The notes under the pieces: generated by a model
Told to the model about the DNA's origin: nothing
The model's database searches: none
What the model saw: only the letters and a program-made list of their open reading frames with translations
Position numbers and translations under genes: made by a program
Shown: one piece after another, positions 8,926 to 51,241 of the stretch
Position numbering within the stretch: the stretch's first letter is position 1
How the letters are laid out: every line of letters begins with the position of its first letter
Virus record (IMG/VR): IMGVR_UViG_3300037483_000317
Span: 1-51,241 of that record
Strand: one strand, 5' to 3'
Length of the DNA: 51,241 nucleotides
Origin: a virus
Taxonomy: Duplodnaviria; Caudoviricetes

Positions 8926-10203
8926 TCAGTTGCCGCGTAAACGCGAGAGAGAAATGTCTGCATCTTGACCAAGTCGAACCGGCTTCAATGGTTCGTTCTG
9001 TTTGACTCGTAAGTAAAATGGTGAGAGTTTGCCTTCGCCGCCAAGATGAATGACGATCGGATCGCTGGAATCATTCTCTCGGATGCTAACCGGCGGCAGG
9101 TACGGCAGAATCGCCTCCGCCTGCTGCTCCGGCGTCGGCGTATCGTGATTGAGCTGTGCTAAAGCGTCTTCGGTTGCTTTCTGCTGCTCGTTGATTTGCT
9201 GGATTGTTTGGTTGATCGTGGCGTTCGACTGCGCGATAGCTGAGACGTTCTCAGATAACTTGACCGCGCTTTCAGAAAGCGCCGACACCTGATTCTGAAG
9301 CTCCTCGAATTCTTCCTTCGTCACGTCGTTCACGTGGTCGCACTCGCACTCTTTGCCCTGAAGCTTCACGTCGATCTGGCTGTTGATGTAGGTTTCCCAC
9401 TTGCCGAGTAGTTCGGGCGTCGTAACGACGGTATTGGAGCTGGCGGGTTCTTCGGATTGAACCGGCTCCCAATCATCCTCACCATCCGCGATGCTCTGCC
9501 CTTGACCGCCTTCGTAGATTTTCTTTCCACCAGGAGAGTAATACTGCGATGGCTGCCATTGCCGGCCACAGTTACCGTTTTGGCAGCTGTAGTACTGAGT
9601 CAGTTTCGCCATAAAGTTAGAAAACGGCTTCCCGCACGTCATGCGTGCGCCGTTCCTGCTGCCCCACATTACGCCGATCATCTTGCCGCGATCGTCGACT
9701 ACTGCTCCGCCGCTCTGGCCGGAAATTGTGTCAGTCGACAGAACCGGGATGTAGTAATCGCCCGGCGCGAACATTTCGCTTGAGTCGTTGACGATTCGCC
9801 CGCGAGTCACTTGGAGTGGCCCGGCATGAGGGAAGCCGTAGACGCGAATGTCGCCATCGCTATGGTAAGCACCGAGGTTGATTTGATGAGCGTTTGGTCG
9901 CTGTATGACGAGCGCGCACAGGTCGTATTTCGTGTCTAGGCTCACGACAGTCGCCATCGCTGCCGTGTGATTCAGAAACTCGCACCGGACCGTGCCAGCT
10001 TGCTGCGTTCCTCGCATGATGTCGCGCACGACATGACTTGCGGTCACCACCAGCCCGTATTTCTCGTTCTTGTCGACGACAGTTCCTGAGCCGCACAAGC
10101 CATCGCCGCAACGAACAAGGCACCACGGCTGCGCAAGCTCCTGAGCCTGCGCAGCCCCGGCCAGCAGCAGAGCGATCAGCAGTGAAGTGAGGGTGCGGGT
10201 CAC
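8926..10203 (-). CDS. Secreted trypsin-like serine protease with C-terminal coiled coil
   Basis: Signal peptide; GSGTVV, TASHVV (His), DLCAL (Asp), GQSGG (Ser). GTG start overlaps the upstream stop. Confidence 0.85.
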   Translation of the reverse strand: MTRTLTSLLIALLLAGAAQAQELAQPWCLVRCGDGLCGSGTVVDKNEKYGLVVTASHVVRDIMRGTQQAGTVRCEFLNHTAAMATVVSLDTKYDLCALVIQRPNAHQINLGAYHSDGDIRVYGFPHAGPLQVTRGRIVNDSSEMFAPGDYYIPVLSTDTISGQSGGAVVDDRGKMIGVMWGSRNGARMTCGKPFSNFMAKLTQYYSCQNGNCGRQWQPSQYYSPGGKKIYEGGQGQSIADGEDDWEPVQSEEPASSNTVVTTPELLGKWETYINSQIDVKLQGKECECDHVNDVTKEEFEELQNQVSALSESAVKLSENVSAIAQSNATINQTIQQINEQQKATEDALAQLNHDTPTPEQQAEAILPYLPPVSIRENDSSDPIVIHLGGEGKLSPFYLRVKQNEPLKPVRLGQDADISLSRLRGN

Positions 10204-19112: not shown

Positions 19113-20711
19113 CTAAACTCCTTTCACCGCAGCCATGAACTGATCGAGCACCGACTCGGTCCCGTCGAACAACGGCCTGGGTTCTACATTCGCGGGCTTC
19201 TTCTTCGGAGGAAACAACTTCGCCGCTGGCAGATACCAATCCGAAGGGCGGCTCGGCATGAACGGCCAATCCGGGCTCGGCATCTGTCCCTGGTTCTCAC
19301 GCTGAAACAAGGAACGGGCCTGGTTCATCGTCCGTTTCGCGTTCCGGCAACGGCAAACCACCGTCACCCATTTGTCTTTGAGCGTGGGATCCTCGGCCAC
19401 GCGACGCGGTCGGAAGATGTCGCCGCGGACCTCATGCAACCGACCGTTGGTTTCGATCACCATCCGCGTGCGGCCCTTGTAGGCATAGCCACACCCCGGG
19501 CAGACCACGCCGCGATAGCGGACCTTCGAACATTTTGGGCAGACGATTGGCTCGGGCTTCGTCTTGCCTCGAAATTCCTCGAAGTGTTCATCCTGGTACT
19601 GACGGTCGGACTTGCCGAGCGACCAGACGCGATCGCAGTTGAGCGAGTCGAACCGCCAGAAGTTGCCCCCATGATCTTGGATCGTGACCTCGGAAAGTTG
19701 TGGCACACCGTCGACGTTGTATTGCCCGAGCACCCGGCCTCCGGCTTGCAGGTACGCCTTGACCGTTCCGAACGTGCAGAGAAACATGCAATGCGACAGC
19801 CACGAAAACGTGACGCCTTCGCGGAGCACAAATCGGTTAAAGACGACCGTGACGTCCCCATTCTTCGAAGCGGCGCGGAGCGCGTCGCGCCCCTTCTTGT
19901 TCGTATTGAGCGTCCTCCCGTTGAGCCAAATCCGGTTGCTGTCGATGTGCGCCGACGGGATGCCTGCCGACGAATACCGCTGGGCGTACCACAGGCTGTC
20001 CGCCACGCCAGGCGGGAAGGCGATTGTCGGTCGGCTTGTCGGATTGAGTCGCCGAAAATGCTCGATCGACCGACCGCAGATCACCTCCATCATCGTCTCT
20101 TTGACTTCCTTGCGGAGCTCGATGATCGCGGCCCGCTGTTTCTTGAACGCCTTGAGCGTCGGCTCGTCAGGGGCGTAGGTTTGGGCCGGCACGATGGCGC
20201 CGCAGGACCGCAGGTCGCTATTGCGGCCGGCGACCACCATCCGCGTCGCCATGTGATTGATGCCGATCGGCGTCGCCGTGACCAGCACGACGATCGCACC
20301 ACGAGCGATGTACTCGTCGACGATCTGTACCGCTCGCGGCCCGGTTTCGTTGTGGGCCTCGTCGACGATCACCAGCTGGGCCGGTGGCAACTCCATCTGC
20401 CCGGCCTTCCACCGCTTGTGGAGTGTCTGGATTGAGGCGACCTGCACCCGGGCCAGCACGTCGGGCGCGTAGCCGCTCGCCACGAGCCCCGCTTTCAAGT
20501 CGGCGACCTCGGTGTCTTCAAACAACTGATCGATGAGAATCTTCTTGTTGGCGATCAGCAGCGAATCGAAGCCCCACTGGCACATCTTGAGCATCATCCA
20601 AGATTTGCCGCCCCGGGTCGGGCTGGTGAGCACGATCCTCCGCTCGCCCAGTTCAATCAGGCGGTGGACGTCGGCGACGCCAGAGACTTGATGGGGCCAG
20701 GGGCTATGCAC
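19113..20711 (-). CDS. Superfamily 2 DNA helicase with C-terminal zinc finger
   Basis: WPHQ, SPTRGGKS (Walker A), DEAH, TATP, QAGGRVL, CPKC...CPGC. Confidence 0.9.
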   Translation of the reverse strand: MHSPWPHQVSGVADVHRLIELGERRIVLTSPTRGGKSWMMLKMCQWGFDSLLIANKKILIDQLFEDTEVADLKAGLVASGYAPDVLARVQVASIQTLHKRWKAGQMELPPAQLVIVDEAHNETGPRAVQIVDEYIARGAIVVLVTATPIGINHMATRMVVAGRNSDLRSCGAIVPAQTYAPDEPTLKAFKKQRAAIIELRKEVKETMMEVICGRSIEHFRRLNPTSRPTIAFPPGVADSLWYAQRYSSAGIPSAHIDSNRIWLNGRTLNTNKKGRDALRAASKNGDVTVVFNRFVLREGVTFSWLSHCMFLCTFGTVKAYLQAGGRVLGQYNVDGVPQLSEVTIQDHGGNFWRFDSLNCDRVWSLGKSDRQYQDEHFEEFRGKTKPEPIVCPKCSKVRYRGVVCPGCGYAYKGRTRMVIETNGRLHEVRGDIFRPRRVAEDPTLKDKWVTVVCRCRNAKRTMNQARSLFQRENQGQMPSPDWPFMPSRPSDWYLPAAKLFPPKKKPANVEPRPLFDGTESVLDQFMAAVKGV

Positions 20712-21441
20712 GCTGGACGTCCTCCGTGATGGCGGACAAGGCCGCACTGTGCTTCTCGTAGAGGCCCAGCAACTCGAGCGACCGGATCAGGCCGCCCAAA
20801 TGTTTCTGGGCCGTCACCCGGTCCTGCCGGCTGATCACCGGCTTGCCGTTGCGGCGGACGGTTTGCGCTTCGAGCTCGACCGGGTCAAAGTCGACGGGCT
20901 CGTCGTCGAGGGGCGGCTCCGCGACCTCGCTATTTCCCGAGGGTTGCGCTGTCGATTGTTCCACCGTGGAACAATCACTATCCTTTTGGGGGGTCGGCTG
21001 TTCGCGTTTTGGCGTGTACGAGTCGACGATCTCTTTTGCCCGTTGGGCGGTGATTCTGATGCCCTTCGAAGCGAGCTTGCTGGCCTCGATCGCGGCGGCT
21101 TCTGGCACCGATGGCGCCGAGAGAGCGTACATGGCCGTGTCGTCAAACTGCCCGAGTGCGTCGCATTTTTGGAAGCGACCCCAGGCTGCCATGTAGCGGT
21201 GGGCCGTTGTGCGACCGATTCCGCATTCGAGCTCGACCCACTCGCCGAACCGACCGTACTTGCCGTGTTCGGACAGCAGGTCGTTCGCCGTCTGGATCGC
21301 TTCGCCCATCATCATGGCGGCCTTGATGTGCTGGCCCTTGGCGGAGTTGATCTCGCCCATCAGGCAAATCAGCTTGCTCTTCAGCTCGCCGTCGAAGCCT
21401 GCGTAATCGAATGTCTTAGTTGCCAGCAGTTTGCGTGACAT
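20704..21441 (-). CDS. DUF3102-like DNA-binding protein
   Basis: MGEAI...HGKYGRFGEWVELECGIGRTTAHRYM. Confidence 0.7.
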   Translation of the reverse strand: MSRKLLATKTFDYAGFDGELKSKLICLMGEINSAKGQHIKAAMMMGEAIQTANDLLSEHGKYGRFGEWVELECGIGRTTAHRYMAAWGRFQKCDALGQFDDTAMYALSAPSVPEAAAIEASKLASKGIRITAQRAKEIVDSYTPKREQPTPQKDSDCSTVEQSTAQPSGNSEVAEPPLDDEPVDFDPVELEAQTVRRNGKPVISRQDRVTAQKHLGGLIRSLELLGLYEKHSAALSAITEDVQRA

Positions 21442-22330
21442 GGGACTCCGTTCCTTGTGGTGGTTCGGCGTTCATTTCCGACGAGCGTTTGATCTCGCCC
21501 ACGATCAGCGTTGCGCAAAAATCACTTTTCCCGTCGATCTTTTTGGCAACGATGATGCGTCGTAGCCGATTCGCAAAGTGAGTCATCACCGGCGGCCAGT
21601 CGACGGTCGAGTTGTAGAGTGGGGCGTTGTTTTGCAGCGCCGTGAAGGCCCTTTCCCACGCCTCGACGTTTTCCGGTAGCGCGTCGATCCACCGCATGAT
21701 CGTGGGCGGCTCGGACCTGTCGGGCCAGCCGACCGGAAGCGAGAGACCAGCCGAGACGTTGGCAGCAGGCGGCTTAGACTGGCTAGCCGGTGCCGACTGC
21801 TGGCGCCCTGCCCCACGCTGCTGCGATCGTCCACCACGCGGCACCTGCACCGCGGCGTTACCATCCGCCGCGTTCGCATCGTCATCATCTTCTGACGTCA
21901 ACCCGAGGATCGCTGCGTAGCCGTATCGCCGGCGGAAGGTGAGCATCCCACCAAGATCCTGATTGGTGGTCCGATCGGTGGCCGGAATAAAGTCGATCGC
22001 CTCGAAGTAGGCTCCGCTGGTGTGGCCGAGAATTGTTCGCAGCAGCCAGCCGCCGCGAGTCGAGTGGTACGGCTGGCAAATGCAGAGGCCGTTGGCCGAG
22101 AGTGATTCGCGCGTCGCGGCGACAAGGTTTTCGAGCGGCGCATAGCTGAATTCGTATTCCGCTTTCGATTGATCTTTTGGTCGCACTCGCACCGTCTTGC
22201 TGCGCTCGATCTCCTTGAAGGTGGGAGCCGCCTTCGCCAACGCGGCGAATACCTCGGCCGCTGCGCCAACGATCCGAAACCGTAAATCATCCGCTGCAAC
22301 TGTCGCTACCGAACCATTCGTCTCATCCAT
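21416..22330 (-). CDS. ERF-family single-strand annealing protein
   Basis: FSYAPLENL...LSANGL...Q...TILGHTSG...QDLGGMLTFRRRYGYAAILGL..EDDDD. True start is ATG 22330 after a GGAAGGA RBS, downstream of the array. Confidence 0.85.
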   Translation of the reverse strand: MDETNGSVATVAADDLRFRIVGAAAEVFAALAKAAPTFKEIERSKTVRVRPKDQSKAEYEFSYAPLENLVAATRESLSANGLCICQPYHSTRGGWLLRTILGHTSGAYFEAIDFIPATDRTTNQDLGGMLTFRRRYGYAAILGLTSEDDDDANAADGNAAVQVPRGGRSQQRGAGRQQSAPASQSKPPAANVSAGLSLPVGWPDRSEPPTIMRWIDALPENVEAWERAFTALQNNAPLYNSTVDWPPVMTHFANRLRRIIVAKKIDGKSDFCATLIVGEIKRSSEMNAEPPQGTESHVTQTAGN

Positions 22331-22346
22331 GCGTCGTTCCTTCCCC

Positions 22347-22579
22347 CCTGCGCTAACACCCAGTTTCGCTGTCTCGTTCACCGCACCACCATCTCGCCGT
22401 ATAGCTGACGCACCTGCGCTAACACCCCGTTTCGCTGTCTCGTTCACCTGCCTGTAGTTCGAGTTTTCCAACTTCGCACCTGCGCTAACACCCCGTTTCG
22501 CTGTCTCGTTCACCGGATTGGCCGACATAGCTTGGAGACTCCGCCTGCGCTAACACCCCGTTTCGCTGTCTCGTTCACC
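22347..22579 (-). CRISPR. Mini CRISPR array: 4 x 36-nt repeats, 3 spacers (29, 30, 30 nt)
   Basis: Minus-strand repeat GGTGAACGAGACAGCGAAACGGGGTGTTAGCGCAGG at 22544-22579, 22479-22514, 22413-22448 and 22347-22382 (last copy has one substitution). Spacers are unrelated to each other. Confidence 0.9.
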
Positions 22580-23847
22580 CTCGTCGGCTGTAACGCCGTA
22601 CTTGGCACGGCCTTGCGGCCAATCTTGCCGCCGCAAAACGCTCGCAATTCAATCTTGACGTTCAACCGCTGCGCACTTTGCTGCAAAAACTGCTCGAGCT
22701 GATACCACGGCCAGCCGGTCGAATCCTCGCGGTCTGGAACCTTGCCAGCTGTCGCTAGTAGCCGGTCCTCGTGCCCGCCAATTAAAACCACCTTGCCGAC
22801 ACCCTGGTCGCAGCACAATTGCAGCACGTCCGCAATCAATAGCCGATTGCATCCGCTCGCAAAGTTGTTCCACGCCGACTGGAGTTTGAACACCGGCAGC
22901 AGTCCGCGATCTCTCCCTCGCCCCTTGCGCTTCGGTGAATACGTGTAACCGTGCTGCCGACTCCATCGCTGCAAAAGATTCGTCTTGCGTTTGTGGGCGA
23001 CGTGGTGCCCGCGTCCGCCTAGCCGCCATGTTCGGCCAGCGACTCGTAGCGTCCAACAGTTCCTAGACCCGGGCCGCAAGACAGCGATCTTCCCGGCGTC
23101 CAATTCGATCGCCTCGCGTTCCACTTCGTAACTCAGCGCAACAAACCATTTTCGTTTCTTCGCGTCATACGTCAGTTTCGCACCCGCCAGCTTGCGGTCG
23201 CCCGACGCCATCTGCACAGCCGGTTGTGCGTAAGCGGCACGCTTACCGCCCGTTTTCAACGCGGCGCGAATCAGCGTGGACGTTCCAGTTTTCTTTCCCG
23301 GCCGTTCGATTCGATTCAGCCGTGCCTCAAACCATACGCGCCCTTTTTCATCGGCCGGAAGAACCTTGGCATTGGCCGAATCAAACGGAATCGGCTGCGG
23401 GTAACGCGAGCCGCCACGCGAATCGAGGTCAAGCAGAATAGCAATCCACCATTTCGTTGCCGCTGCGCTCGACTGCTTCGTGGTCACGGTCTGGCGCATC
23501 TGATTCAGCAGCAGCACCAGCACCCGCGAATTGAGCCCTGGAAAGCGGGTAGTGATTTTGTGGTAAAGTTCGTTCGCGAGTTCTTTCGGCCACGGCTGCA
23601 CGGTCCATTTCGGTCGCCCGCCGCGAGTTGCCTTGTCGCTTTGATGCCACGCTTTGTCGGCCGCGAGGCAGTGTCTCAATGAGGTGGATGTGTCGCGTGT
23701 CGTGTGCCAGCATTCCCACTGCCGCCAAATGAAGTTGGCCGCTTCTCGTAGCTGCGAGGAAAGATCGTACATCAGCTTTCGGTGTTCGCTCGATAGCTCC
23801 ACGACCTCCAGCTTGCAGCAGCGGGTGATGGAATCTGTTTTTTTCAT
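22510..23847 (-). CDS. Cas12f/TnpB-like RNA-guided protein, predicted nuclease-dead
   Basis: 445 aa. KWFVALSY strand, KGRGRDR bridge-helix region and GWPWYQLEQFLQQSAQRLNVKI match the Cas12f/TnpB layout. RuvC-I reads AVLRPG, RuvC-II reads VVLIGG, and the Zn finger and RuvC-III are absent. Confidence 0.8.
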   Translation of the reverse strand: MKKTDSITRCCKLEVVELSSEHRKLMYDLSSQLREAANFIWRQWECWHTTRDTSTSLRHCLAADKAWHQSDKATRGGRPKWTVQPWPKELANELYHKITTRFPGLNSRVLVLLLNQMRQTVTTKQSSAAATKWWIAILLDLDSRGGSRYPQPIPFDSANAKVLPADEKGRVWFEARLNRIERPGKKTGTSTLIRAALKTGGKRAAYAQPAVQMASGDRKLAGAKLTYDAKKRKWFVALSYEVEREAIELDAGKIAVLRPGSRNCWTLRVAGRTWRLGGRGHHVAHKRKTNLLQRWSRQHGYTYSPKRKGRGRDRGLLPVFKLQSAWNNFASGCNRLLIADVLQLCCDQGVGKVVLIGGHEDRLLATAGKVPDREDSTGWPWYQLEQFLQQSAQRLNVKIELRAFCGGKIGRKAVPSTALQPTRVNETAKRGVSAGGVSKLCRPIR

Positions 23848-23854
23848 GTTGATT

Positions 23855-23936
23855 TAAGGCGGCCGGCGGCGGGTGAGGCCGCCGGCCTAAGCGAAACGAA
23901 GCATCAGTTGGCGAGCGCTTCAGCCCTTGGTCGCCC
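23855..23936 (-). ncRNA. Putative tracrRNA (anti-repeat plus GC hairpin)
   Basis: Minus-strand CTGATGCTTCGTTTCGCT (23907-23890) pairs over 18 nt (13 WC + 5 G-U) with repeat nt 13-30, followed by a 10-bp hairpin at 23861-23887. RNA ends are uncertain. Confidence 0.65.
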
Positions 23937-24125
23937 CTACGGGCAGTGATGGCCAGCTCTTCTCGCCACTGGGCGCCGCAGTGCGCCCTCACCGAACTGG
24001 CGGTGTACGTTACTTATCTCCTTCAACCGCATCGTGCGGCGGCCTCGATCTCCGTCCTCGATTTGTAAAACCGCCGTCCCGTCCGTTGTTGTGGCCAGCG
24101 GGACGACGGACATTGGCCGCGACAA
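23937..24125 (-). CDS. Small hypothetical protein
   Basis: 62 aa between the repeat protein and the cas locus. Confidence 0.45.
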   Translation of the reverse strand: MSRPMSVVPLATTTDGTAVLQIEDGDRGRRTMRLKEISNVHRQFGEGALRRPVARRAGHHCP

Positions 24126-24129
24126 GCGG

Positions 24130-25227
24130 CTAGTGTGCTAGGCCCACTCTCGTCGGTATTAGATCAACAACGGCTGGCTCCGCTGGACGCTCGTACTTAG
24201 CGCCGATGACCTTGCCAGCAACATCGCACTCGTAATGGTTCCAACACGCACGCGCCTTCACTTTGTTTGGGTGATCGCCGTTAGGATGCACGGCGATGTC
24301 TGCGAGTGAGACGAGGCAGGCAACGTACTTTGTCGCGCCGCCATTGAATTCCAGCGTGGCGGCCGGCGTCGGTGAAAAATGGAGTCCGCCGCCACACTCT
24401 GTTATGCCACCATCCCAGTCGCCTGCCAACGACTCGGTGCCCGGCGCATAGACAGTGCCGTGAGGCGACAAAAAATCTTCGTCGACGCCCTTGAACAGCA
24501 GCGCGTAGCTACCGACGACTTCCACACCGTAGTAGTCACACCATTCGCCAGAAGTCACCGGCGCTACAATTGTTATTTGGTGCCCACCGTCGCACGTCGC
24601 CCCGCGGTGTAGTTGTACGGCGACCATTGCGGCTGCCTTCGCAGACACGCTCGCACCAAAAAGAGCAAGCGAAGCGGCGGCCGACGCCACGACGTGCGAG
24701 CTTTCCCACGCCTCGACGTGCGAGCTTCCCCGCGCCTCGACGTGCGAGCTTTCCCACGCCTCGACGTGCGAGCTATCCCGCGCCTCGACGTGCGAGCTTC
24801 CCCGCGCCTCGACGTGCGAGCTATCCCGCGCCTCGACGTGCGAGCTATCCCGCGCCTCGACGTGCGAGCTTTCCCGCGCCTCGACGTGCGAGCTATCCCG
24901 CGCCTCGACGTGCGAGCTTTCCCACGCCTCGACGTGCGAGCTTTCCCGCGCCTCGACGTGCGAGCTATCCCGCGCCTCGACGTGCGAGCTATCCCGCGCC
25001 TCGACGTGCGAGCTTTCCCACGCTACGACGTGCGAGCTTTCCCGCGCCTCGACGTGCGAGCTTCCCCTCGCCCTAAAGAATCCGCCTGTGATGGCCTTCA
25101 CTACGAGCCGCACCGCCGACGAAATGCAAACGTCGATCGTTATCGCGGCTTCGAGGCTGATGCGGTCACTGCCCGCGGCGATGGCCGCATCAAACTCTGC
25201 CTGCGACTTTACGATGGTCCAGTCCAT
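24130..25227 (-). CDS. Octapeptide-repeat phage protein with conserved C-terminal domain
   Basis: 16 x A[R/W][D/E/G]SSHV[E/V]; C-terminal FKGV...ECGGGLHF...KVKA domain. Confidence 0.8.
   Translation of the reverse strand: MDWTIVKSQAEFDAAIAAGSDRISLEAAITIDVCISSAVRLVVKAITGGFFRARGSSHVEARESSHVVAWESSHVEARDSSHVEARDSSHVEARESSHVEAWESSHVEARDSSHVEARESSHVEARDSSHVEARDSSHVEARGSSHVEARDSSHVEAWESSHVEARGSSHVEAWESSHVVASAAASLALFGASVSAKAAAMVAVQLHRGATCDGGHQITIVAPVTSGEWCDYYGVEVVGSYALLFKGVDEDFLSPHGTVYAPGTESLAGDWDGGITECGGGLHFSPTPAATLEFNGGATKYVACLVSLADIAVHPNGDHPNKVKARACWNHYECDVAGKVIGAKYERPAEPAVVDLIPTRVGLAH
24688..25071. repeat. 24-nt tandem repeat, 16 copies
   Basis: Unit approximately CTCGACGTGCGAGCTWTCCCRCGC. Confidence 0.95.
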
Positions 25228-25349
25228 GCGGGTGGCTCCAGTTTTCTTGGGCCAGCACGGCAGCGGTGCCGAGAGGGCCGGTACTTGCTACCGGCTTCAG
25301 GTGGGCGATGTGCCCAGGTGAGAAGGCCGGCGTTTCTTTCGATGCCGCA

Positions 25350-25378
25350 AATATATTCGCTACCGAATACGTTTGCAA
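25350..25378 (-). promoter_or_regulatory. Early-operon sigma70-type promoter with TTCG-N4-CGAA operator
   Basis: TTGCAA-17 nt-TATATT; palindrome TTCGCTACCGAA at 25356-25367. Confidence 0.65.
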
Positions 25379-25425
25379 GGGCAAAAACGCCGACGAAAAA
25401 AGATTTTCAGAATTCCCCAGCTACA

Positions 25426-25644
25426 TCAATCTGTAGGGGGTCGACCGGGATCGCGACGCTCCCTGTTGTAGCGGTCGATTTCCGCTTGAGAAATAAGCCA
25501 GTCGCGGCCACCCTTGACGGCTTGAAGCCGCGGCGGGTCGGAGTTGCAATACGTGCGCACCGTGTCTGGGTCGAGGTCGAGCAATTCGGCGGCCTCCCTG
25601 CACGTATACATCTTCCCCTTGAGTTGGATTGACACGGTGCTCAT
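25426..25644 (-). CDS. Excisionase-like / HTH_17 DNA-binding protein
   Basis: MYTCREAAELLDLDPDTVRTYC...LQAVKGGRDWLISQAEIDRY. Confidence 0.8.
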   Translation of the reverse strand: MSTVSIQLKGKMYTCREAAELLDLDPDTVRTYCNSDPPRLQAVKGGRDWLISQAEIDRYNRERRDPGRPPTD

Positions 25645-25650
25645 GCTCCT

Positions 25651-25679
25651 AATATATTCGCAAACGAAAGTAAATGCAA
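25651..25679 (-). promoter_or_regulatory. Promoter of the HTH gene with TTCG-N4-CGAA operator
   Basis: TTGCAT-17 nt-TATATT, 6 nt before the ATG; TTCGCAAACGAA at 25657-25668. Confidence 0.65.
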
Positions 25680-25831
25680 GCGGCAGGCGATATCGCGGCA
25701 AACGCCGGCAAAGCCGAACCGCCCCAAAGCCTTGCGGACAATGGGACACCTGCCGCTTGCGTTTGTTGGTCCTTTCTCGAGGTTGATGGTTTACTTACTT
25801 GCATTGGTAACGCTATTCGACTTTGGGATTT

Positions 25832-25881
25832 GGGGCGGGCCGTCGGGAGTGGTATCCAGCGGCGGCCCGCCTTTTTCATTT
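25832..25881 (+). terminator. Terminator-like hairpin
   Basis: GGCGGGCCGTCG...CGGCGGCCCGCC followed by TTTTTCATTTT. Confidence 0.5.
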
Positions 25882-25951
25882 TGTTCTCTCGGCCCCGCAA
25901 ACCTCCCGCGGTGCCACCCCGGCCGGCGACCGCCGCCGCGCCGGGGACTTT

Positions 25952-26080
25952 TCATCCCGGGTGCATCACCCACCACACGGCTAGCGCCGCCACGACCACG
26001 GCGAGTGGGATCCACACGTCATGCGGCGACCAATCTGGGTCGGAGCGTTTGGCCCACTGCAACCAGCGTTTTGGATTCAT
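25952..26080 (-). CDS. Small membrane peptide (42 aa)
   Basis: MNPKRWLQW...WIPLAVVVAALAVWWV. Confidence 0.4.
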   Translation of the reverse strand: MNPKRWLQWAKRSDPDWSPHDVWIPLAVVVAALAVWWVMHPG

Positions 26081-26280
26081 GGGAATTTCTTTTCTGGAAA
26101 ATTTGACACGGCCAATTTGCGCAATTAGGGTTGAGTGAGCCGACAATCGGCGGACTGGCCGTAGTTCTCAGCGGAGAGGACTTCTTTCGACTTTTGGATA
26201 TGCCGGATGTACCGGCGACGCACGGCTGCGCTGTGCATGGACGTGAGCTAGGGTTTAGATACACCCCCAACGTCCAAGCA

Positions 26281-27186
26281 ATGCCTCAACACAAACTTCT
26301 ATTTGCTCTCTACGAAGGGCAATACGAGCCAATCAAGATTCGTTCGCGGCGTCCAAACACGAAGCGTCTCTACCGCGCTACACTCAAGGAATTTGCGTTG
26401 TTCCTTACGCGACCACCAACGCTCGCGGACTTGAACGACGCGACGGTCTCAAGGTTTGCCGCCCATCGACTCAACGGAGGATTGGCAAAGCGCACCATCA
26501 ACAAAGACCTATTCAACCTGCTCGCGCTCTGGCGATGGCTCCACACCAAAGGCTACGTCACGAACTGGCCAGCCGTGGAAATGGAAACGCCACCGGTGCG
26601 TGTGCCGATTGCACTCTTGCGAGACGAGATCGACCGGATGATGGAGGCGATCGACGCCGAGCGGTTGCCGGTCGGCAGCATTTCGCCGCCACTCTTCTGG
26701 CGCGCGCTGATGCTCGTCATTTGGGATACTGGCGAGCGGATCGGCGCATTGATGGCGCTCACGTGGGACCAGGTCGATCTCGACGGCGGCTGGGTGCGGT
26801 TTGTCGCCGAGACCCGCAAGGGTGCGATGGAAGATAACCTGCTGCCGATCGCAGCCGACACCCGCGATGCGCTCCGCAAGATTCGGCCACGCTCAGCCGT
26901 GGGAAGCGATCTGGTATACCGCTGGCCCTACTCGGCGACGTACATCTATCGGCGGCTGGGAAGGATCATGCGGCAGGCCGGACTGCCGGACAATCGGCAA
27001 TACAAATTTCACGTCGTGCGGAAGAGCGTGGCCAGCCACTACGAGGCGGCCGGCGGAAACGCGACCGACCTACTCAAGCACAGCAGCCGGAAGGTGACGA
27101 TGAGTTATCTTGATCCGCGGATTGTGAAGCCGGTGGCGCCGGTGGATCTGCTGTTTCGGCCTGGATCAGCCGTCCCGAGCCAGTAA
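26281..27186 (+). CDS. int: Tyrosine integrase/recombinase
   Basis: DTGERIGALMAL (R), FHVVRKS (HxxR), LKHSS (H), SYLD (Y). ORF open from 26131. Confidence 0.9.
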   Translation: MPQHKLLFALYEGQYEPIKIRSRRPNTKRLYRATLKEFALFLTRPPTLADLNDATVSRFAAHRLNGGLAKRTINKDLFNLLALWRWLHTKGYVTNWPAVEMETPPVRVPIALLRDEIDRMMEAIDAERLPVGSISPPLFWRALMLVIWDTGERIGALMALTWDQVDLDGGWVRFVAETRKGAMEDNLLPIAADTRDALRKIRPRSAVGSDLVYRWPYSATYIYRRLGRIMRQAGLPDNRQYKFHVVRKSVASHYEAAGGNATDLLKHSSRKVTMSYLDPRIVKPVAPVDLLFRPGSAVPSQ

Positions 27187-48587: not shown

Positions 48588-51227
48588 TCACAAACTCGAC
48601 GGCCGAACCTTGACATTGGCCACAAGTGTGTGCCCATCCACCGTGAGCACAGTCACCTTCAGTTGGTCCGTGTTGCCGCTTGTCCCGCCGGTCAATGCGA
48701 AGCGTACCGCAGTCGACAGCCAAAGTTCAGCCTCACCAACATCAGCAAAGGCTGGCGAGTCAACGTCGTCACCAACATCTGCGTCTGCTACCAACTCTAC
48801 CGACGTGATCGACGTGATCGCATCGCCAGTGGCCAGGACCGATCTGAAGTCACAGGCCACATCTTGTGTCTCTGTCGGGTCAATCACGATCGGGAATGGG
48901 GAGCCGATCTTGCCGTCTCGCCGCTGTACGGTCCACGTCAGTTGTTTTGGGACGCCGATCTCTGCGCCAATCGAGTTCGCCGCCAGCAACTGCAAACGTT
49001 CGTCTGTCGTGAACCCACCACTCGCAACTGCGGTCAAGCCACTCCCCTCCGTGCCCACGTTGTCCCGCCGCGCCTCGTCGCTGTCGGTGACGTTGCTGAA
49101 CGTGCCCGCTCCGCTACCCTCGTCGGCGTTGATCTCGGTGAGTTCCGGGGCGTTGTCGATCGCGATCCCTGCGTCTTTGCGGAGTGCGAGCTGCGTGTAC
49201 TTGCGAGTCTTGGTCAGCACTGCGGCCAGTTGCGTGCTGTTGGAATCAATCTCTTGGCGTACCTCAATGGCAGTCGGTGCCGTGGCACCAGGAATCTGGC
49301 CGAACGCCGTGACCGTGTAGGTCGTTGTTCCATCCGGCGTCGTCGCCCAATTTCCATTGACTGTCGCAACCTTGGTTGACCCCACGTAGTCGCTGATGAT
49401 CCGTGCTTGACCTGCCCCCGTGCCGCCGGTGAGTGTGAGAATCTGATAGTTGTAGTAATCGTCGGTTGCGACGGCGCCCGCTTGGAGCGTCAGCGTGCCG
49501 GCTGATCCGGCTTGGGCCGTGCCCGAGTCGCTGATATACGATCCAGAAACACCAGCAATGTCGGCGGCGAGGTCAACGGCTGGGGTTCCGAGCTTTGGCT
49601 GCATGTCGGCCGTGTCAATTAGGATTGCAGCGATCGAGGCATTATCAGGTGCCGTCGTGTTCGCCCCGTCCGTGCCGCGCATGTCCGTGTTCGTGGTCGT
49701 GGTGTCGGTCAGCGTTACCCGTGAGATGTGCCCGCTGCCGCTGATTGCGAGCGCAGCAAAGTTTGCCGGTAACGCGGCTGCGGGTGCGATCGCGTTGCCG
49801 CTGCCATCGAGCGCGAGCACTTGGTTCGAGGCGTTTCCGGTTGGTAGACCACCGCTTGCCGCCGGTTCCACGGCGGGGAGTGCGAGCAGTATGCGTGTTT
49901 TTGTGTCGTCGATTGTCTCGCGGTCCCAAATCGCATTGCTCCCGATCTTCGCCCCGCCATCCATGCGGCAACTCGCCGCCGCCACGACCCGCCCTGCCTC
50001 TCCACTGCCGGTCGCTCTGCCGCGCAGGTCGTTAACGCCCGCGCCGTTCGCGTTGCTCGTGACAATCCTTGCGCCGCGCAAGGCTACTAAAGGCGACGGC
50101 AAACCTTCTGAGCTGTTGTTAGCGGCAAGCACGCCATCGACTGTCGCCGCCAAACCGGAGTCAAGATTTCGCACTCGAATTAAACAATTAGAAGACGTAA
50201 CGATCGAGTTGCTTTCAGAAAAGATGCCGGCGAGCATTGTGCCAGAAGTGAGCGGATGACCGGTTGCGGGCACTACAACGTCGATTTCGCAATCTTCAAC
50301 CGACAGCACACCCGACGCTCCTCCTTGGGCGACCGTTGAGCCTGCTGCGTTGATTCCTCGAACAGATTGGGCTCCGCCAATTGAAACCGTGCCGTCGGTA
50401 AATAAAGAGCAGCGGTTGATGCGCGCCGAGCGCATGCCGTAAAGCACGACCACGTCCTGCTGGCTGATGAATCGGCTATCTTCAAAATGGCAAACACCGT
50501 TTCCGCCATTGAAATTGGTGATTGCGCACGCATCTTGCCAGCCAGAGCATGTACAGCGTTTGATCGTGATATCGCTAACATTCTGCCCCACAAACGCCAA
50601 TCCTGCCGTGTTCGTAATGTTTAACCCGTCGAGAGTGGTGCCATCCTCAAGATCGATTGCGCCGACAACAACGACGCTGCTCGTAATCGTGACGCTACCG
50701 GGTGCCGCGCATAGAGTGAGACCCTTTTTGCTGACATCAATTGCCGTCGTCGACATAGCGTAGGTGCCAGGCTTAAAAAAGATCGTGTCGCCTTCAGACG
50801 CAGCGGATATCGCCGCTGCTGGCGTTTCTAGTGGCGCGCTAAACGTGCCAGCGTTCGAGTCGCTACCGCCGCTTGCCGCCAAGTACCAAATCCGCCCGCC
50901 ACGCTCGTTGAACTTCGCGCCCTGATACGTGAGTGCGAAGCTCGCCGGCGCCATCATGCGGAAGTCACGGCCGATCGGCCCGACTGCATCCGCGTGGTCG
51001 ATTGCGACCACGAGCGTGTCGAGCGCCGCCGCCTCGTCGGCGTGCAGCGTGTATTTCCACTGATCGGTTTCGTCGACCGCCAGCGTGCCGGCCCCAGCGC
51101 CCCACGTGCCGTCGATGCAGACCCGCACCGTTGCGCCCGTGACCAGCCGCGTGCCGTCGCTCAGTTTGATGAGCGACTCGACAAAGTAAATCGTTTCGAT
51201 CACGCCAGTGCGTAGGAACCCGTTCAT
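48588..51227 (-). CDS. Beta-helix virion adhesin/tailspike-like protein, allele B
   Basis: 879 aa; WYLAASGGSDSNAGT..APLET...GDTIFFKPGTY beta-helix start; C-terminal Ig-like domain. Confidence 0.8.
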   Translation of the reverse strand: MNGFLRTGVIETIYFVESLIKLSDGTRLVTGATVRVCIDGTWGAGAGTLAVDETDQWKYTLHADEAAALDTLVVAIDHADAVGPIGRDFRMMAPASFALTYQGAKFNERGGRIWYLAASGGSDSNAGTFSAPLETPAAAISAASEGDTIFFKPGTYAMSTTAIDVSKKGLTLCAAPGSVTITSSVVVVGAIDLEDGTTLDGLNITNTAGLAFVGQNVSDITIKRCTCSGWQDACAITNFNGGNGVCHFEDSRFISQQDVVVLYGMRSARINRCSLFTDGTVSIGGAQSVRGINAAGSTVAQGGASGVLSVEDCEIDVVVPATGHPLTSGTMLAGIFSESNSIVTSSNCLIRVRNLDSGLAATVDGVLAANNSSEGLPSPLVALRGARIVTSNANGAGVNDLRGRATGSGEAGRVVAAASCRMDGGAKIGSNAIWDRETIDDTKTRILLALPAVEPAASGGLPTGNASNQVLALDGSGNAIAPAAALPANFAALAISGSGHISRVTLTDTTTTNTDMRGTDGANTTAPDNASIAAILIDTADMQPKLGTPAVDLAADIAGVSGSYISDSGTAQAGSAGTLTLQAGAVATDDYYNYQILTLTGGTGAGQARIISDYVGSTKVATVNGNWATTPDGTTTYTVTAFGQIPGATAPTAIEVRQEIDSNSTQLAAVLTKTRKYTQLALRKDAGIAIDNAPELTEINADEGSGAGTFSNVTDSDEARRDNVGTEGSGLTAVASGGFTTDERLQLLAANSIGAEIGVPKQLTWTVQRRDGKIGSPFPIVIDPTETQDVACDFRSVLATGDAITSITSVELVADADVGDDVDSPAFADVGEAELWLSTAVRFALTGGTSGNTDQLKVTVLTVDGHTLVANVKVRPSSL

Positions 51228-51241
51228 GCGTTCGCCCTCCG
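49485..51241. repeat. Right copy of imperfect terminal direct repeat (pairs with 1-1685)
   Basis: See left copy; this copy is 72 nt longer. Confidence 0.95.

Follow-up and report, generated by a model that had tools for sequence, protein, structure and literature searches.

Introduction

A long repeat/anti-repeat stem combined with a short repeat/anti-repeat stem of 5–7 bp, which forms a pseudoknot, is the guide design of Cas12b, Cas12f1, Cas12g and Cas12l according to the passages of Jiao et al. that we draw on here, and the same passages give the short stem as necessary for targeting by AsCas12f1 (PMC11246509). The dCas12f proteins that work with sigma-E are described, in the text passages of Hoffmann et al. 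(2026) considered here, as residing on Bacteroidota chromosomes beside rpoE and hth and as using single guide RNAs, with no tracrRNA-like species found (PMC13472631). A separate cluster of dCas12f near CRISPR arrays is mentioned there in passing, with reference to Extended Data Fig. 1. One array-linked dCas12f, from a Chitinophagaceae genome, is given with a guide against an efflux promoter in the portion of the literature covered. In the sequence of events proposed in the text of Altae-Tran et al. (2023), Cas12f first lost its activity and RuvC-III while the array and the tracrRNA remained; at a later step only a half repeat was left of the array, close to the tracrRNA, with which it subsequently fused (PMC10691335). 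RNA-guided DNA binding also serves silencing in two further systems, Cas12m, which binds without double-strand cleavage (excerpts of PMC10442227), and TldR (as reported in the text of PMC13472631).

Here, we describe a locus on the minus strand of an IMG/VR virus record (IMGVR_UViG_3300037483_000317), which was analyzed over its whole length of 51,241 nt and is referred to below as the window. In this locus, a candidate tracrRNA, an effector gene (P0001) and a CRISPR array follow one another. The RNA has the long plus short anti-repeat layout of the dual guide of Cas12f1 (AsCas12f1, PDB 8J12/7WJU), as far as that layout is set out in the passages of PMC11246509. Three features of a type V-F tracrRNA are present: the element adjoins a Cas12f-family gene and an array, and it carries both a long anti-repeat and a short one of 5–7 bp. 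Several points set it apart from the AsCas12f1 system: a short RNA core of about 100 nt, a tracrRNA placed upstream of the gene, an array that abuts the 3′ end of the gene, a phage record as carrier in which no Cas1 was found, and the lack of a match of the RNA to any Rfam family (scan of positions 20000–27000 at E ≤ 1, with two unrelated weak matches only). The protein differs from AsCas12f1 in the absence of the RuvC-I Asp, the RuvC-II Glu and the whole TNB/RuvC-III end. Like the sigma-E dCas12f (PDB 9N9C) described in the text of PMC13472631, it is truncated at the C terminus, with part of the RuvC site lost. Unlike that system, again by the same text, the window has an array and a separate anti-repeat RNA, and no sigma factor was found among the 10 neighboring ORFs scanned, the neighbors being a phrog_15773 protein and Erf.

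There is also a likeness to the array-linked dCas12f cluster of PMC13472631 and to the intermediate of PMC10691335, in which an inactivated Cas12f is still tied to an array; in the text of these two papers, however, no phage-borne family, tracrRNA model or experiment is described for it. The P0001 family fits the first stage of the path given in the text of PMC10691335. A full-text literature search, which covered the running text of PMC13472631 and PMC10691335, returned no description of a phage-borne dead Cas12f linked to both an array and a tracrRNA. The RNA-guided DNA binding without double-strand cleavage that we propose for the window module would be like that of Cas12m and TldR, with the difference that TldR uses one omega-RNA-like guide and no array.

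Results

Repeat Complementarity Upstream of the Effector Gene

The first-pass annotation had placed a tracrRNA-like anti-repeat upstream of the effector gene, pairing without gaps to the CRISPR repeat on the condition that both RNAs are read from the minus strand. When the window was scanned with RNAduplex in 40-nt windows, G+C-rich noise dominated the result and the candidate fell outside the top 10. The loose scan was replaced by scoring of ungapped helices on both strands of all 51,241 bases. With this measure, the proposed helix of 18 bp, comprised of 13 Watson–Crick and 5 G-U pairs with repeat positions 13–30 (score 38), ranked first outside the array, and the runner-up reached a score of 31 with 12 bp. 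Dinucleotide-preserving shuffles of the 282-nt intergenic region, scored on both strands, reached the score of the helix in 2/5000 cases and its length in 1/5000. For a plus-strand RNA against the plus-strand repeat, the best helix had 10 bp and a score of 24 and was located elsewhere in the region. Thus, the pairing and its restriction to the minus/minus orientation both hold as originally described. The coordinates of this and all other parts of the locus are listed in Table 1.

Table 1. Parts of the candidate tracrRNA–effector–array locus in the window, listed from the array upward.
Feature	Position	Strand	Description
CRISPR array	22347..22579	-	four 36-nt repeats, three spacers, period 65–66 nt
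Repeats 1–4	22579-22544, 22514-22479, 22448-22413, 22382-22347	-	only the gene-distal repeat, 22382-22347, is mutated
Spacers 1–3	22543-22515, 22478-22449, 22412-22383	-	29–30 nt
Effector gene P0001	22510..23847	-	445-aa ORF; homology spans 23826-22597
Candidate tracrRNA, whole	about 23855..23991	-	conserved core 23991-23889 and terminator-like hairpin; ends approximate; alignments A3–A5
GC hairpin	23861..23887	-	10-bp perfect stem, 7-nt loop; element ends 13 nt before the ATG
Long anti-repeat	23890..23907	-	18 bp with repeat positions 13–30; helix scan, cross-locus scoring, shuffles
P2 3′ arm (CUCGCC)	23910..23915	-	followed by two unpaired A (23909-23908)
Inner stem-loop region P3	23916..23961	-	invariant GAA-N-AGCU motif; helices 3 and 4 are 100% and 91.7% paired (alignment A5)
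P2 5′ arm (GGCGAG)	23962..23967	-	pairs with 23915-23910; 98.6% of cells paired over 12 loci; 2 pairs vary on both sides
Hairpin 1	23971..23988	-	6-bp stem, 6-nt loop; fold -13.3 kcal/mol; all 6 stem pairs vary on both sides
Short anti-repeat, hairpin 1 loop (CUGCG)	23981-23977	-	complementary to CGCAG near the repeat 3′ end

Extent and Fold of the Candidate tracrRNA

The anti-repeat belongs to a conserved RNA element of ~100–137 nt that sits directly upstream of the effector gene and extends further in the 5′ direction than the interval first flagged. A covariance model (R1) built from 12 distinct element sequences (see below) gave a single match in the window, to the conserved core (55.2 bits, E = 1.8e-12). 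Its parts succeed one another as follows: a short hairpin, a GGCGAG...CUCGCC stem around an invariant GAA-N-AGCU motif, two unpaired bases, a locus-specific stretch and, usually, a GC hairpin. In the window, the repeat sequence CGCAG to which the loop of hairpin 1 is complementary sits one base before the spacer. The P3 region of the window contains a 15-column insertion that is absent from the other 11 aligned loci, and it is because of this insertion that the window has the lowest R1 score. The insertion also bears on the GGCGA/TCGCC stem of the first-pass annotation: its 3′ arm at 23914-23910 is real, but the GGCGA at 23935-23931 that had been taken as the partner lies inside the window-specific insertion, and the comparison of 12 loci places the true partner at 23967-23962, outside the interval first flagged.

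The perfect 10-bp GC hairpin at the 3′ end was recovered as annotated, with a folding energy of -24.7 kcal/mol (z = -3.81) that was reached by 0/200 shuffles. It resembles a terminator, but CCUUAAAU comes next instead of a U-run, and a simple terminator scan did not call it. A scan of positions 22200–24400 for promoters and terminators found neither; such a scan is uninformative for this phylum. By eye, a hairpin is present at the equivalent place in 7/12 loci, whereas 4/12 (L004, L014, L015 and L020) have no hairpin between anti-repeat and gene. Three of these, L004, L014 and L015, but not L020, have a T-run and a ribosome-binding site directly after the anti-repeat, also judged by eye. The window hairpin without a U-run and the loci in which the hairpin is missing suggest that the RNA may not be a small RNA of its own but a 5′ leader. 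All 15 of the 15 sequencing runs that contain the stretch are DNA metagenomes.

Conservation of the Element and Its Pairing across Loci

The common element, consisting of hairpin 1, the GGCGAG...CUCGCC stem and a variable tail, was seen upstream of the effector gene in L003, L004, L005, L006 and the window. We searched IMG/VR with a motif derived from the DNA of the conserved core only, leaving out the anti-repeat. This search returned 19 stretches, of which 10 were the element; nine of these scored 77–88 bits with R1, and the tenth (L029) is on the same contig as L003. A P0001 homologue lies directly downstream in 9/10 of the element stretches, and in the remaining one (L022) there is an array instead. 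The other 9/19 stretches were chance matches, with R1 scores of ≤16.6 bits or no score. The order element–gene–array of the window, where the array begins at the 3′ end of the gene, recurs in L003, L004, L005, L006, L012, L014, L015, L019 and L020. In L002 to L006, the gene is immediately followed by an array (period 65–74) of like orientation; L001 has its array upstream of the gene. The R1 scan found no element in L001, where the array occupies the start of the contig, or in L002, where the DNA upstream is truncated. Pairing was tested in the 11 loci with an array among the 12 that define R1, L024 being left out because there is no array in its available DNA.

For the long helix, the 22 nt that follow the core in each of the 11 loci were scored against each of the 11 repeats. 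Pairing with the repeat of the same locus gave helices of 6–18 bp with a mean of 10.0, compared to a mean of 6.96 and a maximum of 10 for the 110 cross-locus values. In permutations, which ignore the shared descent of these related loci, 1/100,000 reached the summed length and 0/100,000 the summed duplex energy. In 10/11 loci, 0–2 nt separate the core from the start of the helix, whose other end falls at repeat position 29–31. By length, pairing with the own repeat was strictly the best in 5/11 loci, tied in three (L005, L004 and L022) and beaten in three (L012, L019 and L020); by duplex energy, it was strictly the best in 6/11. In L019, L020 and L022 the long helix has only 6–8 bp, and the best helix found automatically in L019 is in another register.

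A second, short anti-repeat, which the first-pass annotation had not described, lies in the loop of hairpin 1: in 11/11 loci this loop can pair with the last 5–7 nt of the own repeat. Compensatory changes in loop and repeat end occur in L003 (CUUGU/ACAAG), L006 (UUGGA/UCCAA) and L022 (CCCGC/GCGGG). The own-locus mean for this short anti-repeat was 5.55, compared to 4.24 across loci, and the observed sum was reached by 1/100,000 permutations; since the repeat 3′ end is alike in most loci, the cross-locus values are high, and the weight of the test rests mainly on L003, L006 and L022. The core structure of 19 pairs, which was derived from the alignment, was paired in 89.0% of cases, compared to 79.6% in shuffles and 35–45% in slid controls. 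Ten core pairs vary on both sides, where 6.2 would be expected, and 0/500 shuffles reached these values. RNAalifold alone yielded 18 pairs, 9 of them with compensatory changes. The covariation across homologous loci that the first-pass annotation had named as a check is therefore present, both as own-repeat pairing above the cross-locus level and as compensatory change in the short stem, and the complementarity to the own repeat that is kept across the 11 loci supports the identification of the element as a tracrRNA-like anti-repeat.

Several loci have features of their own. At a distance of 50–150 nt upstream of the element, L005 (3762–3778 and 3807–3817) and L003 (3699–3712) carry incomplete repeats that correspond to the 3′ half and are oriented like the array; they recall the stage with a half repeat near the tracrRNA in the text of PMC10691335, and none were seen in the window. 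L009, from a genome of the phylum Planctomycetota (G371), encodes at 1048–2541 on the minus strand a 497-aa Cas12f of the active type, with a PF07282 match (3.5e-21) and QMEDL kept. Between this gene and the array, at 953–1050 on the minus strand, there is a weak R1 match (22.5 bits, E = 0.002) with a hairpin loop complementary to the repeat end, followed by an array with a period of 66 and repeats that end like those of the window. The phage system may have a cellular relative here. In L022 (oriented, 369–900), the element is followed directly by the array, and no P0001 homologue was found in the 7-kb contig; either the layout is different or the effector gene has been lost. In L012 (about 9824–9900) and L014 (oriented, about 2204–2260), the last, cut repeat appears by eye to run into a small CxxC ORF. 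The ORFs after the arrays of L004 (6174–6719) and L014 have phrog_2658 in common, which is absent from the window, where Erf is found instead; such a post-array ORF may be a recurring neighbor.

These data also bear on the reading that the element acts only in cis, as a 5′ leader for autoregulation or attenuation, in which the complementarity to the repeat would regulate the operon transcript and no guide would be built. The position of the element, on the strand of the gene and immediately ahead of its start codon, would suit a leader, as would the hairpin without a U-run in the window and the 4/12 loci without a hairpin, three of them with a ribosome-binding site right after the anti-repeat. 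A location in the leader is, however, compatible with release of the RNA by processing, and pairing at two sites copies the guide scaffold of Cas12f1 and Cas12b, which in those systems is part of the effector complex in the passages of PMC11246509. Moreover, the weakly similar element of L009 lies between gene and array and not in a leader, and in L022 no gene separates the element from the array. We therefore consider a purely cis-acting leader improbable.

The CRISPR Array and Its Spacers

The array has regular repeats, a nearly constant spacer length, mostly unique spacers and one strain variant. The repeat alone is unstructured (-4.9 kcal/mol, z = 0.24; 109/200 shuffles fold as well), in agreement with its initial description as hairpin-poor. 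The first-pass annotation had also used the single mutated repeat, at the distal end, as an argument for the minus-strand orientation, and the other three repeats are indeed unmutated; the mutation falls on repeat position 21, within the long duplex. Of the 89 spacers counted in 11 loci, 86 occur only once in their own locus. In one 96-nt metagenome contig (run X11, depth 3.3), a different spacer lies between repeats 1 and 2. This variant first spacer hints at turnover at the gene-proximal end of the array, in a phage without Cas1.

Matches to the spacers give only weak hints of a target. No self-targets were found when the window spacers were compared with the window and the related loci. All 30/30 nt of spacer 2 were found in a foreign context in two short contigs from two metagenomes (runs X2 and X9) that also contain the phage. 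The first 22 nt of this spacer had 0 matches in viral contigs and one in metagenome contigs, in a conserved part of a phosphoglycerate kinase gene on an unrelated contig (L030, 5800–5821); this match covers only 22/30 nt, and by eye the flanks of the 30/30 copies are unlike that gene. When the array of L005 and its upstream half-repeats, with the sequences next to them, were compared with the genome of their host (G001), the matches did not rise above chance level (best 21 nt, 95%, E = 0.076). When all 89 spacers were matched against all the sequences compared, only two matches were obtained, both known from the other searches. BLAST of the L015 array and of window positions 21400–24200 against GenBank phages gave no match.

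The Effector Protein P0001

P0001 had no match in Pfam (E ≤ 1), NCBIfam or PHROG, and at the same Pfam threshold the TNB/zinc-ribbon domain PF07282 was absent. A word-indexed search returned 27 relatives, most of 412–427 aa, and an exhaustive search gave 296 cluster representatives at E ≤ 0.001, most of 400–480 aa, corresponding to about 300 family clusters at 50% identity. An alignment of 26 sequences of the family has 19 invariant columns. When the profile of these 26 members was compared with the PDB, the matches were to Cas12f chains: 9i8y (6.4e-22), AsCas12f 7wju/8j12 (about 2e-20) and dCas12f 9n9c (2.4e-9), so that the profile is nearer to active AsCas12f than to dCas12f. The AlphaFold model of P0001 had a pLDDT of 86.7, with residues 406–411 and 415–445 disordered. 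The best Foldseek hit of this model was AsCas12f (8j12_A, E = 1.2e-21, TM 0.49–0.54), with dCas12f (9n9c_A) at 2.1e-17, and the protein is far nearer to Cas12f than to Cas12m (8hhl_A, 7.5e-9). Cas12m, a larger protein, matures its crRNA itself and uses no tracrRNA for this. By both profile and structure, P0001 is Cas12f-like, with the WED, REC and RuvC core of that fold.

In the HMMER alignment, the P0001 family has a Leu opposite the Asp of the GIDLG motif of AsCas12f, a residue that is Ala in the deposited 7wju chain, and no Glu opposite the QMEDL motif. This Asp and this Glu we take to be the RuvC-I and RuvC-II residues of the catalytic triad. The profile match leaves about 60 residues at the C terminus of AsCas12f uncovered, and the RuvC D-E-D triad is not intact in P0001. 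With the RuvC-I Asp and the RuvC-II Glu replaced and the TNB/RuvC-III end missing, P0001 is probably nuclease-dead, judging by its sequence. The combination of a C-terminal truncation with a retained Cas12f fold is that by which dCas12f is defined in the text of PMC13472631. Cas12r of Thermus phages, an active nuclease of 500–700 aa that needs no tracrRNA, and the Cas12p “hacker”, also an active nuclease of 500–700 aa, were considered as the family on the basis of partial accounts and rejected.

The P0001 ORF has no stop before the array: it continues through repeat 1 and spacer 1 to a TGA in repeat 2. Its last ~22 codons come from repeat 1 and spacer 1, and the resulting tail is disordered in the model. 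In L005 and L004, the stop of the homologous gene is exactly at the array border.

Phage Context

The record is a linear IMG/VR virus with a CheckV completeness of 100%. Its phage genes include a tyrosine integrase (26131–27186), an Erf recombinase (22330..21416), a helicase and a tail protein, and the effector is present in one copy. The ESM Atlas cluster nearest to P0001 is 78% viral, and the family is rare in cellular genomes: a scan of genome contigs gave two loci, and among 401 genomes of the phylum to which the genome of L005 belongs there were one strong and two weak family matches. A tblastn search of phages with P0001 gave one weak match only, to a transposase, and a protein-pattern scan of metagenome contigs returned 159 stretches with 0 relatives of P0001.

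Just upstream of the candidate tracrRNA, a minus-strand ORF (24130..25227) contains sixteen tandem 24-nt units at 24685–25072 (92% matches), which correspond to an 8-residue repeat. Its protein matches phrog_15773, a family with no functional annotation (3.7e-58), and has weak similarity to the C-terminal repeat of T4 gp5. At either end, the record breaks off within a long minus-strand ORF (1–1671, 557 aa, and 48588–51239, 883 aa). Their frames, by count, do not join directly, and the record may thus be cut inside one or two large genes.

Discussion

We conclude with high confidence that the interval first flagged belongs to a tracrRNA gene (about 23991–23855, minus strand), of which it forms the 3′ portion, within a phage-borne, adaptation-less CRISPR module of type V-F-like character whose effector has probably lost its nuclease. 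The features that point to loss of the nuclease raise the question of whether the module is a decaying relic in which RNA, array and protein no longer work. The loss of the catalytic residues and of the C-terminal domain, the effector ORF without a stop before the array, the mere three spacers and the absence of Cas1 from the record would all fit decay. The family is, however, large and has kept its length, as seen in its 296 representatives and 19 invariant columns; compensatory changes accompany the conservation of the RNA core and of the two anti-repeats, 86 of the 89 spacers in 11 loci are unique within the locus, and the same truncation occurs in working dCas12f according to the text of PMC13472631. 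We thus regard decay of the whole module as very unlikely. Chance complementarity beside an ordinary terminator of the upstream gene is hardly credible, even though 9-nt exact matches to a 36-nt repeat are expected, by simple arithmetic, several times in 51 kb and loose duplex scans of this G+C-rich region yield many matches of -33 to -37 kcal/mol, since the helix ranks first in the record and is equaled in score by 2/5000 shuffles, the same position is occupied by locus-specific anti-repeats in other loci, the upstream gene appears by eye to have its own hairpin and T-run at about 24050–24090, and both anti-repeat permutation tests and the core-structure test contradict it.

For the tracrRNA, we propose the following mode of action. 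The RNA would be transcribed in the direction of the gene and the array, either as a short RNA that ends at the GC hairpin or as the 5′ leader of the effector mRNA. It would then base-pair twice with each repeat in the array transcript: through the long anti-repeat with repeat positions 13–30, and through the loop of hairpin 1 with the CGCAG near the repeat 3′ end, beside the spacer, closing a pseudoknot. Processing of the duplex would probably fall to a host RNase, for instance RNase III acting on its 18 bp, and the Cas12f-like protein would bind the composite scaffold with the spacer at its 3′ side. This complex would bind matching DNA without cutting it and would probably block transcription or replication of the target. 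Of this scheme, the data show the pairing and its co-variation with the repeat over the loci, the conserved fold of the RNA core, the Cas12f-like fold of the protein and the loss of its catalytic parts; transcription, processing, protein and DNA binding and silencing are inferred. The likely function of the module is tracrRNA-dependent, RNA-guided DNA binding without cleavage.

A wider interpretation, which we put forward tentatively, at somewhat less than even chances, is that a widespread family of temperate phages carries a self-contained, programmable “natural CRISPRi”, made up of a tracrRNA, a dead Cas12f and an array that turns over without Cas1, which would silence, and not cut, genes of the host or of rival mobile elements. 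The family would then be a living example of the intermediate of Altae-Tran et al., between active Cas12f and the dCas12f transcription factors with single guides.

Since the design of the RNA is the known Cas12f one, the presence of a tracrRNA is in principle no surprise. What is new is the setting, a phage-borne Cas12f-like family, probably nuclease-dead by nature, that would still depend on an array and a tracrRNA. The two anti-repeats and the conserved core are what reconstitution and the design of a single guide need, and the system would, if this reading is true, provide a very small (about 415 aa) natural DNA-binding scaffold. The system opens the question of what use a phage makes of a DNA binder that is unable to cut, and it would offer an experimental handle on the proposed path from a CRISPR nuclease to an RNA-guided transcription factor.
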